DNA of 36,695 bases, taken from the IMG/VR virus record IMGVR_UViG_3300037043_000064, positions 1 to 36,695 of that record; one strand, 5' to 3'. A program made the position numbers and the translations under genes. Below the pieces are notes generated by a model. That model saw only the letters and a list, made by a program, of their open reading frames with translations, had not been told where the DNA came from and made no database searches. Below are positions 5,935-36,695 of the stretch, piece after piece (the first letter of the stretch is position 1; the number at the start of each line of letters is the position of its first letter). The DNA comes from a virus. Taxonomy: Duplodnaviria; Caudoviricetes.

Positions 5935-8900
5935 CTATTTCCGGTACGGCCTCTTGTTCTTGCGCCGGTCTGCCGTCGTCGCCACGCGCCGCATTCGCAG
6001 CACGTCCGAGACGTCCCACGGCCAGCCGACGGTGGCGCTGCCGGTGTGGCTGGTCCAGTTGTACGTCGTCTCGACCACGTACAGGTCCGTGGCCCCGTCC
6101 AGCGACGGGACGCTGAGCCGGTCGCCGGGGCGCACGTGGTAGCTGTGGCGCACGACTCCGGCCGTCGTCGTCGCGGTCGCGGTGAGCGGGACCGTGCCCG
6201 TCCATTGCTGCGCCTGCCGCCGCGTCCACAGCCTCGCGGCGAGGGCGGCGGCCTCGGCCTCGGTCATCACCACGTCGCCGTAGGCGTCCTCGACGGACAC
6301 GCGGGCGTCCCACTCGGCGGGCGGCTCGGGGTGCCAGACGCTGACCGGGGTTCCGTTCGGGATCCCGCTGATGCCCGAGGACAGGAACAGCAGGCGGATG
6401 TAGTCGGGGGCGACCTCGGTGTCGCGCTCGAGGCCGGACTCGTCCTCGCCCGCGCGCCCGCCGTAGCTCCAGTGCGTGTTGCGGGTCGGGTCGACGGCGG
6501 CGGGGAGCTCCTGCGCGTAGAAGACGTCCACGCCGTCGGCCCCGAGGCGGAACTCGTACTCGACCTCTTCGTCGTGATAGCCCGCCACCTCGCGCAGGCC
6601 GTCGGCAGCGGTCTTCGGCCAGTCGGGGCGCACGACGAGGTGGCCGAGGGCGCTGCCGATGGTGGCGACCTCGGCGCGGCCGGCGAGGCCCGGCCGCGTG
6701 GCGACTTCGGCGAGGGCGTCGGACACGGAGGCGTCGGCGGTCGCGGTGATGAGGCGGTCGACGCGGGCGAGGCGGTAGCCCGAGCGGGAGACGTAGACGT
6801 ACTCGTTCGCGGCCGCGCCCATCGGCCCGGCCCCGACGTTCCACTCGCGCACGTAGGTGCCGTCGGCCTCGAACTCCTGAACGCGCGCGTTGTCGCGGTC
6901 GACGACGAAGACGGTCCCGCCAGAGCCGATGGCGACGCCCGTGGGGGCGTCGAACTGGCCGTCGCCGCTGCCGCTTGAGCCCCACTTGTCGGTGAAGGTG
7001 CCGTCCGCGGCGAAGTACTGGACGCGGTTGTTGTCCTGGTCTGCCACGTACACGGCACCACTGGCCGCCACGGCGACGCCGCGCGGGTAGCTGAACTCGC
7101 CGTTCCCGCTGCCGCTCGTGCCCCACTGGCCGGAGTAGGTGCCGGTGGCGGTGAAGTACTGGACGCGGTCGAGGTCGGAGTCGGTGACGTAGACGGCGCC
7201 GCCGGGGGCGACGGCGACCGAGTCGGCGACGCTGAACTGCCCGTTGCCGGTCCCCGCGCTGCCCCACTTGCCGAGGTAGGCACCCTCGGCGGTGAAGTAC
7301 TGGACGCGGTTGTTGTCCTGGTCGACGACGTAGACGGTGCCGCTCGCGGCCACTGCGACGTCGCTCGGGTAGTTGAGCTCGCCGTCCCCGCTGCCGTTGC
7401 TGCCGAAGGCGCGGACGAACGCACCCGCTGCGGTGAACTGCTGGACGCGATGGTTGGCTGAGTCGGCGACGTAGACGTCTCCGCTCGGCGCGAGTCCGAG
7501 GCCGAGCGGAACCTTCATCTGCCCCGGCTCGCTGCCGTACTCGCCGAAGGCGACGGAGTTGCCGCCGCCGTGAGCGACGACGTCGGTGAGGATGCAGTGC
7601 TGGGCGGCGGTGTAGGTAGTCTTCGTCGAGCAGGTTAGGCGCAGGCGAACGCAGCGGGTGCCGGGCGGGAACGAGCCGCTGGCGGGGACGCGCTGGCCGG
7701 ACAGCGTCGTCGTCGCGTTCGTCTTCGTCCAGTCGGTATCGGCGAAGCTGCCCCACGGGGTCGTGCCCGCCTGCACCTTCGCGGTTAGGGTCGCGGGCAG
7801 CTTGATGTCGGCGGCGAAGGTGAGGTGGTCGATGTCGCCCTCGCCGAACCCGGCGCTGACCCAGTAGGCGAGGCTGAAGCTGCCCGCCGCGAGCGTGTCC
7901 CCGTCCTCGACGCCGATGTAGAGGCGGCCCTCGGTGTCGCTCGCCCACTGCTGCGAGTCCTGCACCGTCGGCTGCCACTGGTCGTAGTCGGCGTCCTGCC
8001 AGACGTGGCAGAAGTCCTCGCGCCGGGCGGCCCATGCGTGGACGCCGCCGACGCCGATGGAGAGGCTGTCGCTGGGGCCGCTGCGGCTGTGGCGGATGGG
8101 GTCGGAGAGGACGCGGCCCCCGTAGGCGCCCTCGCCCCCCACCATGAGCCGGACGCGGGCGCCGGGCCGGAGCTGGTTCCGCGCCGCCGATGCGTCCCTC
8201 GCCGAGAGCTCGAACTCCAGCGAGCCGTCGCCGCCGGGCATGGCGCGGGTCATCTCGCCGATCGCGGCGACGGGGCCGAGGTCGCGCCAGCCGAGGGTGT
8301 CGGAGCCGAGGAGGAGGGAGGGGCGCTGCTGCTTGTGCCGGCGCTCAGTCTTCTCGAAGGTGCGCGTGGTGAAAGTGACCTCGGAGCCGTAGACGGTCCC
8401 GGCGGCGCTCGTCGCGTAGGCGCGGACGTAGTAGGTCGTCTTCGGACTCAGGCCCGTGATGGTGCTCGTGTACGCGCCCGCTCCGCTGCCGTCTGTGGTC
8501 TTGTCGTCAGCCGTGGTCGGACTACCGGTGGCGTTCCAGCAGACGCCGCGCGCGGTCGCCGTCTCGCCGCCGGGGAGGACGGTGCCACCGCTGGCGGCGG
8601 CGGTCGTCGTGGCGCCGGTGACGGCAGCCGTCGTGACTTCGAGCCAGCCGGTCCCGGCGGCGTAGTTCTGAGCGACCTGCTCGGGAGTGAGGGCGAAGGG
8701 GTAGACGCGGGCAACGGCGATTGACCCTGGGAAGGGGTAGGTCAGGGACGAGAGCCGAGTGGCAGTTGCCGTGATGACTCCGGGGGCGATTCCGACTGAC
8801 CCGCCGGCAACGCCGTCCACCCACGCCACAAGATTGACGCCGTTCAGCGTGACGACGCCATGGTGCCAGTTCCCGTCGTTGACCGGCACGCTCGGCCCGG

Positions 8901-28660: not shown

Positions 28661-28883
28661 AAAGGTGCGCACGGGGCCCTCTCTTAAGAGAGGGGCCCCC
28701 TGCGTGCGCATCTTCGTCTGTGTGCCGTAGGAAAGCTGCGCAGAAAGGTGCGCAGGGTTCTGCGCATCTTGATTCGTCTGTTTTGCAGGTACTTTTCTGA
28801 AAGGTGCGCAAGGTGCGCACGGACCGCTGCGCACCTTTCGTCGGAAAGGTGCGCAAGGTGCGCAAACCGCCCTGCGCAGCTTT
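28661..28883. repeat. Iteron-like repeat cluster; putative replication origin
   Basis: 11 copies of TGCGCA, mostly as (A)AAGGTGCGCA in direct and inverted orientation, plus the perfect 18-bp palindrome CCCTCTCTTAAGAGAGGG at 28677-28694. Directly downstream of the helicase gene. Confidence 0.7.
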
Positions 28884-28903
28884 CACTGGTGCATAAACGG
28901 TAT

Positions 28904-31688: not shown

Positions 31689-32092
31689 GACGCAACCATG
31701 CACTCGAGCAGCGTAGGAGGAGCGAGGAAGGCGAGCTCGACCTCCAGCAGGCTGCGCTGGCAGGGCGAGCAGTAGCGGTCCTCCCGGTGGTCGCGCGCCA
31801 AGCGCACGCCGCAGCTCTCGCAGTGGGCCGGCGTGGCCGGTTCCGGGGCGAGCTCGCGCGGGCGCGTCATGAGCACGTAGAGGCCGCCCCGGTGTGAACC
31901 GGGGGGCCTCATGTTGCTGAACCCGTAGCCGCGGCCCGTGAGGCGGGTCAGGGCGACCGTCACGTAGGTGCGCCCGGCCCTGCTCCCCTCGTCGTAACCG
32001 CAGGCGTAGAGCAGGTCGCTCATCGTCTGCGGCCCGCGCTCGAGCGCGTCGACGATCGCGCGCTGCTTGACCGTCAGGGGGCGCTGGCTCAT
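31685..32092 (-). CDS. Winged-helix plus Zn-finger protein
   Basis: QRAIVDALERGPQTMSDL...ALTRLTGRGY...GLYVL, then CESCGVRLARDHREDRYCSPC. Confidence 0.7.
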   Translation of the reverse strand: MSQRPLTVKQRAIVDALERGPQTMSDLLYACGYDEGSRAGRTYVTVALTRLTGRGYGFSNMRPPGSHRGGLYVLMTRPRELAPEPATPAHCESCGVRLARDHREDRYCSPCQRSLLEVELAFLAPPTLLECMVAS

Positions 32093-32730
32093 GACCCACC
32101 ATCACCATTGACGACCCGGAACGTCCCCCAGCCCACGCCCGCGCTCTTCTTCGAGTCCGGGCGACCCTCGCCGACCCCGACCTGCAGACCGGCTCGTGCG
32201 AGCAGGTTCGCGACGTCGACGAGACCGAGCATGTCTGCGTCGAACGTCACCCTCACCTGGGCCCGCCAGCCCTCGCGCCACATCGGTCGGACGCGGATGT
32301 CGACGACTCCGGTCTCGTTGCGCGCGTAGCCCTCATGCATCTCGGGCTCGCCAGCGGCGATACGCACGAGTGGCGTGCCGTCATCGGCGTCGAAGCCGTC
32401 AGGCTCGATGAACACAGCCAGCTTGGCCCGCGTCATCACAAACCCGGCCGCCCGGCAGGCGCTGATCATCGCGTTGCGGAAGGCCGGGGCCGGGATGCCG
32501 GCCCAGCCGTCCGTCGAGACGTGCATGGCGCCCCGGTAGTCGGCCTCGAAGTCGCGTGCCGCGCGGGTGTTCTTTCCGCGTGCCGTCGAGCCCGCGGCTT
32601 GCTTCTCCATCATCTTGAGACGTGCCTTCTGTGAGAACTTGTGCGACACGTACGGAGCGCTGCCCTCGATGGTGAAGGCGGCAGTCTGGAAGTTCGGTGC
32701 CGCGATTGTGATGGTGTCGTTGTTGCTCAA
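32089..32730 (-). CDS. Stand-alone RAMP-superfamily (Cas7-like) RNA-binding protein
   Basis: TTG start after AGGAGA RBS; beta1 FTIEGSAPYVSH; GIPAPAFRNAMISA (cf. RAMP IPgss.kGa.R); C-terminal Gly-rich loop GVGEGRPDSKKSAGVGWGTFRV. Confidence 0.75.
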   Translation of the reverse strand: MSNNDTITIAAPNFQTAAFTIEGSAPYVSHKFSQKARLKMMEKQAAGSTARGKNTRAARDFEADYRGAMHVSTDGWAGIPAPAFRNAMISACRAAGFVMTRAKLAVFIEPDGFDADDGTPLVRIAAGEPEMHEGYARNETGVVDIRVRPMWREGWRAQVRVTFDADMLGLVDVANLLARAGLQVGVGEGRPDSKKSAGVGWGTFRVVNGDGGS

Positions 32731-32755
32731 GGTGTTCTCCTGTGAGTGTGTGTAT

Positions 32756-32843
32756 GCCGTGCCGTGCCTCGCCGCGCCTGCCATGCCTTGCCCCGCCGGG
32801 CCCTGCCCATCCTTGCCATGCCCAGCCGGGCCGAGCCTGCCGT
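32756..32843 (-). ncRNA. GGC-NN pentamer array; candidate guide RNA for the adjacent RAMP protein
   Basis: Intergenic. Minus strand reads AC GGC A GGC TC GGC CC GGC TG GGC AT GGC AA GGA TG GGC AG GGC CC GGC GG GGC AA GGC AT GGC A GGC GC GGC GA GGC AC GGC AC GGC. The repeat is directly visible; the RNA role is inferred. Confidence 0.7.
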
Positions 32844-32844
32844 G

Positions 32845-33330
32845 TCAAACGCCGACCGGCTCAAGCGCGGAACGTGCCTCCTCGACGGCTGCCCACACGA
32901 CGGACAGCTCGTCGAGGTAGCGGAAACGGTGCGCAACCCCGTTGAGCAGGCGTAGCGCCTCGGCGACCGCGGCCGCGTGTAGTTCGTCGTCGTTCGCGAT
33001 GTCGACGGTCGCCACGTAAGCTGAGCCGCCGCACTTCTCATGCACGACGTGCACGACCAACGGCTCAGTCTCGCCTGTCTCTGTGACGACACGCACGGAG
33101 CGCGAGAGATGGCGCGCCTGTTCCAGCCGGTACTGCTCGGCCGCAGCCCCGTCGTCCCACTCGAATACGGGATGCAAGGGGTGGCTCTCACGCCGGGCGG
33201 CGTTCAGTACGCGTTCGGCGGTCAGTGGCCCGGTCTTCAGTAGCCGGGCAAGTGCCCGTCCCGCGGTGTCGGCGTCGACTCCTCTGACCTTGGAGCTGGG
33301 GGCGAATTGGTATGCAGTGACCACGCTCAT
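32845..33330 (-). CDS. Conserved phage protein, likely accessory to the RAMP/array cassette
   Basis: LTAERVLNAAR...HPLHPVFEWDDGAAAEQYRLEQARHLSRSVRVV; stop codon 1 nt from the array. Confidence 0.7.
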   Translation of the reverse strand: MSVVTAYQFAPSSKVRGVDADTAGRALARLLKTGPLTAERVLNAARRESHPLHPVFEWDDGAAAEQYRLEQARHLSRSVRVVTETGETEPLVVHVVHEKCGGSAYVATVDIANDDELHAAAVAEALRLLNGVAHRFRYLDELSVVWAAVEEARSALEPVGV

Positions 33331-34736
33331 GCCGCCCTCCCACCCGGCGCCTCGACGCCGGTCGAGACGTCGGTGATCCACCGCTGCAGGTAGTCGATGA
33401 CGCGCGTCGCCGCCGTCTTGGTCAGCTCGGTGCGGCTGGCGACCTTCTCCTTCTCGAACATGTAGAGGCGCCACTCGTCGCGGCCGACGCCGAGGCGCTC
33501 GAGCTCGGCGCACTGCGCGCCGAGGCGGGTGAGCTGGGCGGCGGTGACGGTGCCCTTCTTGCGCGGCTTGTCGTCCTCCGGCACAGCCGCCTTCTTGCCG
33601 TTGCCGGCCGTCTGGTCGAGGAACGCCCTGTCGGCCTCATCGAGGTCGTCGTCCCCTTCAGGGGCCTCTTGACCCTCACCAGTGGCCAAAGCGCCGCCAG
33701 GGGCCCTCCCTGCGTCTCCTGCGGCCTCCTCGAAGTCTTGCGCGCGCACGGGCGCGTCCGCGCGGGGCTTGACGCCCTCCGGGTCGGCGAATCCGCCGAT
33801 GATCTCGAGCAGACCGTCGAACTCGCTTGAGGGGATGCTCGTTAGGTGCTCGCCGTCGCCTATGCCCTTGCCGGCGAGGACGGAGAGGAACCACTTGCTC
33901 TCGCGTCCCTTCGCGAGGAGGCGCTCGTGCAGGTCGCGCGCCTGCGTCTTGGTGATGTGCCCGTTGCCCTGCGGCTCTTCCGCGCGGTCCTCCTGCTCGT
34001 CGCGCATGACCTGGCGGACCGGCCGTGGCGGCTCGGGTGAGGCGCCGGCGAGCCATGCGGCCAGCTCCTTGCCCGTCTTCTCGCTGGGCACCTCGAGGCG
34101 GTCGTCGAAGAGGCCGGTGCGGTCCTTCGACGCGCTGGCGATGTGTTCGCGCGAGAGGTCGAGCACGAGGGTGAACTCGTACTCAGCGTCCTTGCGCTGC
34201 TCGGGCGCCAGCCCGACCTTCTTCGGCACCTTCTTGCCGCGGTCGTTCTCCTCGATCACGTACTCGACCTTGGAGCGCATCGTGGCGATGACGTGGCACT
34301 TGCTCGCCAGCATCGCGTCGAAGAGCTTCTTCTGCAGCGGCGTGCCCTCTTTCCAGGCGGCGAAGCTGTTGCCGCTCGACTTCGCCTTGGCGACGCTGTC
34401 GACGAAGTCGAGGATGCCGCCCTCGCCGCTCCAGGCGTGGGTCAGCGAGTCGATGACGATGACCTCGAAGCCTTCCTCCTCGGCGGCGCCGATCGCCTTG
34501 ATGTAGCGGGCGACGGAGTAGGGCGGCTCGAAGTCGAGCACGGCGTAGGGGCCGAGGTCGGCATACAGGCTGCCGCTGCCGCGCTCCGTGTCGATGAGGG
34601 CGACCTTGGAGAGGTCGCCGCCGGTGAGGCCCTTGGCGATGAGCAGGGCGGAGTAGGTCTTGCCGCTGCCGCTCGGGCCGTCGATCGCCAGGCGCAGCTT
34701 CGCCTGGGTGCGTTGTGCTGTCTGGAACAGGGTCAT
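33327..34736 (-). CDS. AAA_24 / Sak4-like P-loop ATPase (recombination) with long C-terminal extension
   Basis: KLRLAIDGPSGSGKTYSAL, IDTERGS, IVIDSLTHAW, HVIATMRSK, EYEFTLVLD, SKDRT. Confidence 0.85.
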   Translation of the reverse strand: MTLFQTAQRTQAKLRLAIDGPSGSGKTYSALLIAKGLTGGDLSKVALIDTERGSGSLYADLGPYAVLDFEPPYSVARYIKAIGAAEEEGFEVIVIDSLTHAWSGEGGILDFVDSVAKAKSSGNSFAAWKEGTPLQKKLFDAMLASKCHVIATMRSKVEYVIEENDRGKKVPKKVGLAPEQRKDAEYEFTLVLDLSREHIASASKDRTGLFDDRLEVPSEKTGKELAAWLAGASPEPPRPVRQVMRDEQEDRAEEPQGNGHITKTQARDLHERLLAKGRESKWFLSVLAGKGIGDGEHLTSIPSSEFDGLLEIIGGFADPEGVKPRADAPVRAQDFEEAAGDAGRAPGGALATGEGQEAPEGDDDLDEADRAFLDQTAGNGKKAAVPEDDKPRKKGTVTAAQLTRLGAQCAELERLGVGRDEWRLYMFEKEKVASRTELTKTAATRVIDYLQRWITDVSTGVEAPGGRAA

Positions 34737-35098
34737 GCTTTCCCCTTCATTTCGCGTACCACCGCGCGTTCGGCGTCGAGGCCGGCGCGGTGAGCTTCAT
34801 CGTCCGTCTTGCCGTCGGCCAGAGCCGCGCGCAGGGCGGCGGCGTAGGCGTCCTGGCGGCGACGGCAGGTCAGCGCGGCTTCCTCGAGGGCGAGCGCCAG
34901 CTCGTGGTCGCGGTAGGTGGGACGCGCTGGCGGGTGGGCGGCGACGGCGGCGATGCCGGCGCCGAGTGATCCGGCGTCGCGGAGCGCGTCGAGGTACTCG
35001 TCCTCGGTGCGTGCCGCGCGGGCCGCATGGCGCACGTCGCCCGCGGCCTGCTCTTCATCCCACTGCTGCCACTCCGACCAGGCATCGGGCTCACGCAT
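34733..35098 (-). CDS. Hypothetical protein
   Basis: Ala-rich helical ORF overlapping the stop of the upstream gene and coupled to the ATPase. Confidence 0.65.
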   Translation of the reverse strand: MREPDAWSEWQQWDEEQAAGDVRHAARAARTEDEYLDALRDAGSLGAGIAAVAAHPPARPTYRDHELALALEEAALTCRRRQDAYAAALRAALADGKTDDEAHRAGLDAERAVVREMKGKA

Positions 35099-35324
35099 GG
35101 TGACCACCCCGGTCCGGCCGGATCCCGGCCAGCGCGGCGACGTCGTCCATGGTGAGGTTCGTGATGTCGACCCTGGACGGGCAGCAGGCCGCGCTCATCG
35201 GCTCGCCCTCGTCGCGCATCTCGACGGCGATGAGGCAGTCGGGTGCGGTGAAGGGGCCGATGCAGAACTCGCAGGCCAGGCAGTGCAGCTCGGAGCCCGG
35301 CGTGAATGTCGAGATGCCGGTCAT
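35091..35324 (-). CDS. Cys-rich hypothetical protein (77 aa)
   Basis: ATGA start overlap; CLACEFC...C...CC. Confidence 0.6.
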   Translation of the reverse strand: MTGISTFTPGSELHCLACEFCIGPFTAPDCLIAVEMRDEGEPMSAACCPSRVDITNLTMDDVAALAGIRPDRGGHHA

Positions 35325-35416
35325 GACGCTGCCGCCAGGGCGAGCAGCGCGATCGCCGCGCACAGGCCGATGAGGCCGGCGGTGAGGATGACGATCGTCC
35401 ATCCGAGGGTGTTCAT
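35321..35416 (-). CDS. 31-aa hydrophobic membrane peptide
   Basis: MNTLGWTIVILTAGLIGLCAAIALLALAAAS; ATGA overlaps at both ends. Confidence 0.6.
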   Translation of the reverse strand: MNTLGWTIVILTAGLIGLCAAIALLALAAAS

Positions 35417-35721
35417 CGCCGGCCGCCTTCCCGCGCCAGGTAGAGCACGCCGAAGATGAGCACGGCGAGCAGGCCGGCGACGAAGAGTTCGGGAGGCGTG
35501 TGGTCAGCGATGATGCCGCAGATCACGACCAGCGCGCTGATGACGAGGGGGAAGGCAGCGGCCGCGAGAATGTCACGAACCGTGCGTGAGAACGGACGAC
35601 TTGCCGTTGCATTGGTGTTACAATGCGCGGCGCCCTCGTCTTCTGTAGCGGTTGACTGTGGGCTGGTGGATGCGCCCCTCTCTGCCAAGGGAATGGGGCG
35701 CTCCGCCGTTAAGCGGAACAT
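35413..35721 (-). CDS. Two-TM membrane protein, first gene of the early operon
   Basis: TAAGGAG RBS; two hydrophobic segments in the C-terminal half. Confidence 0.65.
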   Translation of the reverse strand: MFRLTAERPIPLAERGASTSPQSTATEDEGAAHCNTNATASRPFSRTVRDILAAAAFPLVISALVVICGIIADHTPPELFVAGLLAVLIFGVLYLAREGGRR

Positions 35722-35806
35722 CTGGTCTCCTTATGTCGCGTTCACCCCTGCCGGTCCTTCCTTGGCGTCACCTCCTAGAAGTCCACTACTCCTGTTGACG
35801 GAACAG

Positions 35807-35835
35807 ACCCTACACGGATGGTATAGAGATGTCAA
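35807..35835 (-). promoter_or_regulatory. Housekeeping-sigma promoter for the early operon
   Basis: TTGACA (35835-35830), 17-nt spacer, TAGGGT (35812-35807). Confidence 0.8.
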
Positions 35836-36050
35836 GCGCCAGACTCAATAACTCTGCGAACGGCTTTCGCCGTGACGAGGCGGTCTCCTTTGCCAGGGCC
35901 GGCCGCCGTCCAGCGCCAGCCCTTGCCCTCGGGGCCGAAGTAGCCGTGTTCGATCCAGCGGATGATGGTGCGACGGTCTACCTCGAAGAGGACGGCGAGC
36001 TCGCCTGTCCTGTAGGGCTTCCTGCGCGTATTGTCAAATGTCGGACTCAC
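35832..36050 (-). CDS. MerR/BldC/excisionase-like HTH protein
   Basis: YRTGELAVLFEVDRRTIIRWIEHG...GDRLV; GGAGG RBS. Confidence 0.75.
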   Translation of the reverse strand: MSPTFDNTRRKPYRTGELAVLFEVDRRTIIRWIEHGYFGPEGKGWRWTAAGPGKGDRLVTAKAVRRVIESGA

Positions 36051-36145
36051 TCACCCTCCCGCAAGGCCGCGGCTCGGCGGCCCGCACACTCTACCATCTC
36101 ATCGTCACGGAAGCCGTTGAAATTGAATCGACTGCGGTGACGTTG

Positions 36146-36178
36146 AGGCCCCGGACGCAGCGTTGGCGCCCGGGGCCT
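36146..36178 (-). terminator. GC-rich hairpin after the small membrane protein gene
   Basis: AGGCCCCGG...CCGGGGCCT inverted repeat just downstream of the stop at 36192. Confidence 0.55.
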
Positions 36179-36191
36179 GGTCGGGGGGTCC

Positions 36192-36392
36192 TCAGAGCAG
36201 GGTATCGGGCCAGATGTACTTCTTGAGCCCGTACAGCACCGCGCCAAGGCCGAGGGCGAGCGCGGCGTTGGTAACGCCGACGCTCTCGAGTGCGCCGGGT
36301 TCGAGCAGGTAGGCGACGAGGCCGCCGATCAGCGGGAACACGACGGCCCAGAAGGCGCGGATGATGGCGGCGGTCAGTCTGCCGGTGTCCAT
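36192..36392 (-). CDS. Two-TM small membrane protein (holin-like)
   Basis: MDTGRLTAAIIRAFWAVVFPLIGGLVAYLL...ALALGLGAVLYGLKK. Confidence 0.6.
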   Translation of the reverse strand: MDTGRLTAAIIRAFWAVVFPLIGGLVAYLLEPGALESVGVTNAALALGLGAVLYGLKKYIWPDTLL

Positions 36393-36399
36393 TGTTGAT

Positions 36400-36603
36400 T
36401 CACCCCCCTTGCATCTTGAGCAGTTCCGAGCGGACGAACGAGCCGAGCACCTGGTAGGGGCGGCCGCGACCGGGGCTGGCCGAGCGCACCGGCCAGGTGC
36501 CACGCTGACACCGCTTGGTCGCTGTGGCGCGCGAGATCCCCAGCATGTCGGCTGCCTCAGCCGCCGTGTACCAGCGGCGCCTGGCTTGTTGGTGCTCGTC
36601 CAT
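36400..36603 (-). CDS. HTH_17 / excisionase-like DNA-binding protein, probably leaderless
   Basis: WYTAAEAADMLGISRATATKRC; ATG 6 nt after the TACGTT -10 box. Confidence 0.75.
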   Translation of the reverse strand: MDEHQQARRRWYTAAEAADMLGISRATATKRCQRGTWPVRSASPGRGRPYQVLGSFVRSELLKMQGG

Positions 36604-36608
36604 GCCGC

Positions 36609-36636
36609 GAACGTAGCAAGCAGGGCTGTAGGAGGA
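36609..36636 (-). promoter_or_regulatory. Phage promoter-like motif TCCTCCTACA-N8-TGCTACGTT
   Basis: Boxes identical to the 3261-3290 copy with a different spacer. Confidence 0.7.
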
Positions 36637-36695
36637 TGCTCAACCGTCGAGCCAGCGGTAGACGGCGATGACGACGACGCACCAGAGGACGACGA

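Follow-up and report, generated by a model that had tools for sequence, protein, structure and literature searches.

The window, the whole 36.7-kb virus record that was analysed (36,695 nt), carries terminase, portal, capsid and tape-measure genes. Its closest terminase matches were those of Streptomyces phages (46-48% identity), which together with a G+C content of 69% suggests an actinobacterial host. A locus of about 1.25 kb, both genes included, holds a vap-like gene, an array of GGC/NN pentamers and a vipr gene in that order, all on the minus strand (Table 1). The array begins 1 nt past the stop codon of the 161-aa vap-like gene and ends 12 nt ahead of the AGGAG that precedes the 213-aa vipr gene. 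With vipr, an array and an accessory gene in a viral genome, this is a minimal VIPR-type locus. Its neighbours were recombination and replication genes, and the flanking genes gave no cas matches in Pfam or PHROGs.

Repeats of other kinds were seen elsewhere in the window. The 141-bp tandem repeats at 6853-7490 are ordinary coding repeats: they encode the NHL repeats of a virion protein of 1140 aa, which also has a laminin-G-like domain. Short AAGGTGCGC direct repeats at 28731-28884, just past a DnaB/AAA gene, are possible replication-origin iterons.

Table 1. Features of the vap-array-vipr locus in the window, and blocks of related loci that match vipr genes
Feature	Position	Strand or match orientation	Basis
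vap-like gene, 161 aa, PHROG 15946, conserved HPxFEWDD motif	32845..33330	-	co-occurrence in 66/79
array of GGC/NN pentamers, predicted vrRNA precursor	32754..32843	-	between vap and vipr; relatives have the same architecture
5' GGCAGGC junction (1-nt register shift), likely guide boundary	32835..32841	-	parse; GGCA step common in relatives
11-unit block, predicted single guide	32783..32837	-	parse; length within the 7-13 mode of relatives
3' GGCAGGC junction, likely guide boundary	32776..32782	-	parse
5-unit tail, GC GA AC AC AT	32754..32778	-	parse; remnant or 3' flank
AGGAG, likely vipr RBS	32737..32741	-	sequence; 12 nt past array
vipr, 213 aa, TTG start, single-RRM RAMP fold with thumb and G-loop	32089..32730	-	PHROG 4652, hhalign, model
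L010 block	L010:3621-3676	vipr sense	score 26.0 at motif VRPMWREWE
L101 block	L101:3190-3250	vipr sense	score 25.2 at DVANLLARAG
L204 block	L204:2643-2685	vipr sense	score 17.5 at YVQNKFSAK

Layout of the array

Read on the minus strand from 32843 to 32756, the array parses as AC-GGC-A-GGC-(11-NN block)-GGC-A-GGC-GC GA AC AC-GGC. The sequence-only reading had described 18 triplets at period 5 with two 1-nt spacers, each forming GGCAGGC, and this was exact on the minus-strand parse. Seventeen of the triplets are GGC and one is GGA, which precedes TG, the sixth dinucleotide of the block; an extra unit, AT at 32755-32754, directly follows the stretch described in that reading. The dinucleotides of the block are TC CC TG AT AA TG AG CC GG AA AT. 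Their A+T content of 12/22 was likewise confirmed, and is mildly unusual in a window whose overall A+T is 31% (binomial P = 0.018). That adjacent units differ was true inside the 11-unit block but not in the tail, which holds AC AC.

The best 12-unit stretch on the minus strand had a period-5 GGY score of 11, while 100 simulations of the window with an order-4 Markov model reached no more than 7. Four DNA runs, of which two are possible sources of the window, yielded contigs with the array unchanged, and the array is therefore not an assembly artefact; no RNA data set was listed alongside them. Predicted RNA pairing falls mainly inside the repeat tract, and only 12 nt of C/A-rich sequence separates the array from the vipr RBS. 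No terminator-like or sigma-70-like sites were found at the array ends. No sigma-70-like promoter was found in 31900-36695 either, a search that says little for the host of this window, and a search of Rfam returned no family of note. The 5-unit tail is probably too short for a guide; related arrays, like this one, often end in short stretches past the last junction.

The proteins beside the array

The start chosen for vipr by the ORF caller was an ATG within the array, at 32784. The TTG at 32730 is the likely start, because AGGAG lies 6 nt before it and homologues begin at about this position. The 213-aa protein has 2,735 homologues and no Pfam or PADLOC family. PHROG 4652 was matched both by this protein (E 2e-13) and by agp039 of Escherichia phage SUSP1 (E 1e-96), and hhalign of the window protein with SUSP1 Vipr gave 88% (E 3e-6) over 53 columns. 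We took agp039 as the SUSP1 Vipr; it fits the residue numbers of the structure preprint, and the listed T175 is V in the record. SUSP1 H17, R138, D177 and R179 align with H30, R148, E188 and R190 of the window protein, the last three of which are invariant across 113 close homologues. R138 and D177 read GGY and were shown to be essential (10.64898/2026.04.26.720927, available in part), and both equivalents, R148 and E188, are present. The stacking residue W178 of SUSP1 is Gly in the window protein. The predicted structure (pLDDT 88) matched Csm3/Cmr chains best, with Z 10.9 and an rmsd of 4.0 over 149 residues. By profile, aligned residues and predicted fold, the 213-aa protein is a Vipr homologue, a small stand-alone RAMP. 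Among its relatives, the mycobacteriophage homologue at L082 bears the VGDWRP of SUSP1.

Of the 79 viral loci, 66 have a homologue of the vap-like gene close to the vipr match; among 178 related loci only 4 have it upstream of vipr. Its model (pLDDT 94) gave weak winged-helix-like matches (Z 5.6), a fold search that was not decisive. We found no similarity to SUSP1 vap1, and nothing above cut-off in Pfam or PADLOC.

VIPR is a CRISPR-related DNA-silencing system borne by phages and published in 2026 (10.64898/2026.04.26.720920), with further literature in 10.64898/2026.10.21.760802 (available in part). Its vrRNAs consist of 9-16 YNNGG units that repress with a 1-nt skip and wobble alignment, and seven types are recognised (10.64898/2026.04.26.720920). 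The sequence-only reading had placed the information of the array in its dinucleotides and had proposed a one-base skip that ignores wobble positions; both agree with this published code, and the gene adjoining the array is the Vipr homologue. The 11-unit block, inside 18 triplets and on the strand of the adjoining vipr, lies within the published range of units.

The window system shares with type II VIPR, that of SUSP1, the Vipr PHROG, the equivalents of R138, D177 and R179, and a unit number within 9-16. However, its Vipr is 24% identical to that of SUSP1, with Gly for W178 and an 8-residue G-loop insertion, its triplets are GGC where those of SUSP1 are mostly GGT, no structured tail stands between array and RBS, and its vap belongs to PHROG 15946 rather than 5926. 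Because vap1 similarity and a structured 3' tail are absent, the system is not type II VIPR. The Cas7-group RAMPs of class 1 CRISPR (Csm3, Cmr4/6 and type VII Cas7) have the same RRM, thumb and G-loop (Z 8-11) but are only 7-14% identical to the window protein, and class 1 CRISPR has contiguous spacers, long repeats and multi-gene cas operons in place of a pentamer tract. The closest parallel in layout is with 'staggered' arrays with 1-nt overlaps, described in the main text and the legend of fig. S18 of 10.64898/2026.04.26.720920 (available in part). Like them, the window has a phage locus with vipr, one accessory gene and YNNGG repeats and, as far as the legend text allows comparison, guide-length blocks split by a 1-nt register shift; unlike them, it holds just one full block, and its order is vap-array-vipr. 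In every sequence and structure test of VIPR membership that could be run on the letters of the locus and on the predicted model, the search for a natural target aside, the locus came out as VIPR.

Arrays and junctions of related loci

Related loci were chosen by protein alone and comprised 80 viral, 60 genomic and 80 metagenomic loci plus two annotated phages. One viral locus was identical to the window and was set aside, leaving 79. Arrays were present in 72 of 79 viral, 48 of 60 genomic and 51 of 80 metagenomic loci (many of these on short contigs) and in both annotated phages; only identical arrays were dereplicated, and near-duplicate loci inflate the array and junction counts somewhat. 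In the viral set the array lay on the vipr strand in 72/79 loci versus 2/79 on the opposite strand. Over 3,985 units of the viral loci, 3,327 triplets were GGC and 341 were GGA, and the entropy of the dinucleotides was 3.85 of 4 bits. The dinucleotides are thus near maximal entropy and far from invariant between relatives, and none of the 317 blocks compared from relatives has more than 4 of the 11 dinucleotides in the block of the window.

These data bear on whether the tract could be a GC-rich microsatellite, or a coding low-complexity stretch forming an N-terminal extension from the ATG at 32784. The vipr frame is open across part of the array, as such an extension needs, but the period-5 score is far above the Markov null, the dinucleotides are near maximal entropy, and the arrays of relatives keep to the vipr strand in 72/79 loci while lying out of frame with any shared protein. 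The arrays of relatives and their block lengths effectively refute this explanation, to which we assign next to no probability.

The four-nt steps in relatives read GGCA in 951 of 1172 cases. Blocks between junctions were 7-13 units long in 589 of 731 cases (81%), whereas 1,000 shuffles of junction positions put 27% of blocks in this range on average and 33% at most. Many relatives carry several blocks, and the window carries only one full block. Three loci have variant junctions with a common core GCAGG (ATCGCAGG in L003, ACCGCAGG in L018 and TGACGCAGG in L066), and the arrays of L003 and L066 are rich in GGA triplets. The closest homologue in an annotated phage, that of cyanophage Cy-LDV1 (L081, 61%), is accompanied by unannotated arrays past both vipr and vap. 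In Mycobacterium phage Donkeykong an annotated 'hypothetical protein', gp48 (L082:1492-1878), covers a VIPR array of about 70 units and is probably not a gene; a search of viral contigs with one block of this phage gave no exact match.

Guides that target vipr are known (10.64898/2026.04.26.720920; 10.64898/2026.10.15.759431, available in part). We scored 406 blocks against a codon-position profile built from 201 vipr genes, which took in the guides' own loci, with 8,120 shuffles as the null. Three blocks beat all shuffles (null maximum 16.6), each of them on the sense strand and skipping the wobble base; four of the 406 were above the 99.5% threshold, with 2 expected. In the remaining five combinations of frame and strand, real blocks scored 13.7 at best, with null maxima of up to 18.6. 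The L010 and L101 blocks clearly spell conserved vipr motifs at the level of sequence; L204 is borderline, because its score lies below the highest of these null maxima. The fit to the vipr of the same locus was 14/18 for L010, 14/20 for L101 and 15/18 for L204, and the best fit among about 220 other vipr genes was 16/18, 18/20 and 17/18, respectively, a comparison in which taking the best of many favours the higher values. Beyond the junctions only 1.0-4.1 of 10 still matched, and the A of the junction was not read; L010 and L101 have array on the downstream side only, and the upstream junction of L204 is the variant CGCAGGC. These three blocks are candidate anti-VIPR guides, and they give modest but direct support to the view that the blocks of relatives act as separate guides bounded by GGCAGG.

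Other tests were less informative. In a test on exact vipr genes, six blocks came within 2 mismatches in the sense wobble frame where shuffles led us to expect 3.0, a weak excess. No block matched vap genes in the exact-gene or the profile test. When 319 blocks were compared without restriction with 2 Mb of local sequence, a skip of 1 gave no clear excess over skips of 0, 2 or 3 or over shuffles.

The sequence-only reading had also taken GGCAGGC as a guide boundary or processing site. The boundary role fits the staggered arrays as their legend describes them, the block lengths and the anti-vipr matches that end at the junction. GGCAGGC likely bounds the guide, either by cutting of the RNA or by a break in register. 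In the latter case, the same VIPR system would operate on uncut RNA: filaments would form on a long vap-vipr transcript, and each 4-nt step would confine a filament to one block. The array is intercistronic, with neither terminator-like nor sigma-70-like sites at its ends, no nuclease has been identified, and block lengths and match boundaries fit a register break and cutting equally. On the other side, the legend of fig. S18 mentions individual processed vrRNAs (10.64898/2026.04.26.720920, available in part), and the nearly fixed base at the junction (GGCA in 951/1172) better suits a recognised site than a mere shift of frame. We regard a register break with uncut RNA as possible but somewhat unlikely. 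In that paper, confirmation by sRNA-seq is given for the ribozyme-interspersed and single-guide layouts only and not for the staggered one (10.64898/2026.04.26.720920), and the parts of the VIPR literature available to us gave no account of the cutting of staggered arrays, although one may exist elsewhere.

Target and function of the predicted guide

The sequence-only reading had proposed that the dinucleotide string spells a gapped target and, speculatively, a peptide on the reverse complement. For the guide of the window, neither the target nor the putative peptide reading drew a significant match in the collections or the window itself. At a skip of 1 nt, the skip used for the collections (skips of 0, 2 and 3 were tested on local sequence), there were no exact targets in the viral, metagenome and genome collections. 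Sub-patterns of the guide matched 14, 4, 25 and 0 loci in viral contigs (43 in total), one of them at 20/22 and five at 19/22; we estimate that the best of these are at chance level for the size of the collection, and seven ORFs inspected at partial matches were unrelated to one another. The best match within the window was 14-15/22, inside the range of shuffles. The target was also absent from the record of L001 and from two MAGs, 401 genomes from the phylum of G002 (the host phylum being a guess) contained no match at up to 2 mismatches, and the guide did not match the vipr and vap profiles. A likeness of its reverse reading to the N-terminus of a DNA methylase was considered and found no support. 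Just downstream of vipr, 36 nt at 32034-32069 were matched at 31/36 by a deeper-covered contig in four runs; this likeness is probably a common gene motif and is too far from the guide pattern to be a target.

One could take the absence of a target, together with the single full block where many relatives have several, as signs of a decaying or shrunken VIPR array whose sole remaining block now lacks a target. The GGA triplet might point the same way, GGY>GGA being among the perturbations reported to abolish silencing (10.64898/2026.04.26.720920). However, neither vipr nor vap is disrupted, all but one of the 18 triplets are GGC, relatives themselves have GGA at 341 of 3,985 triplets, and single-guide systems are published (10.64898/2026.04.26.720920); the rival phages of this habitat are presumably poorly sampled. 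Decay appears to us quite improbable.

The best explanation, to which we give a probability of about 0.88, is that this repeat serves a phage VIPR system as its guide-RNA tract, which would load the adjoining Vipr and silence DNA, likely that of a rival phage, by a gapped code. The array would be transcribed together with vap and vipr. Each GGC-A-GGC would shift the register by one base, so that one guide ends and the next starts, and the 11-unit block would be the functional unit. Vipr would coat this block with one protomer per GGC, in a filament of some 11-12 subunits that reads 22 bases over 32 bp, and the 22 NN bases would bind a 32-bp gapped site in the DNA of a rival element and cause repression. 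Beyond the anatomy of the locus, these steps are carried over by analogy with SUSP1.

The idea of the sequence-only reading is supported and was right, yet it had already been published: both the class and the code are known, and the locus itself would not surprise a VIPR specialist. The anti-vipr blocks of relatives add some support, at the level of sequence, for GGCAGG bounding independent guides. The locus is a very compact staggered one, with one 11-unit block and two junctions, and is well suited to studying how guides are delimited. Vipr homologues also occur in phages of Mycobacterium (25 records) and Gordonia (4 records), which are culturable test systems. A more speculative proposal, unlikely on present evidence, concerns the clade with Gly for SUSP1 W178, an extended G-loop and a distinct vap. 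In it GGCAGGC would be a cut site for Vipr or a partner, freeing tail-less guides from the mRNA of the operon, and loading or cutting would also set the translation of Vipr itself, since just 12 nt lie between the end of the tract and the RBS of vipr. If true, this would be a self-processing, self-regulating minimal RNA-guided system.
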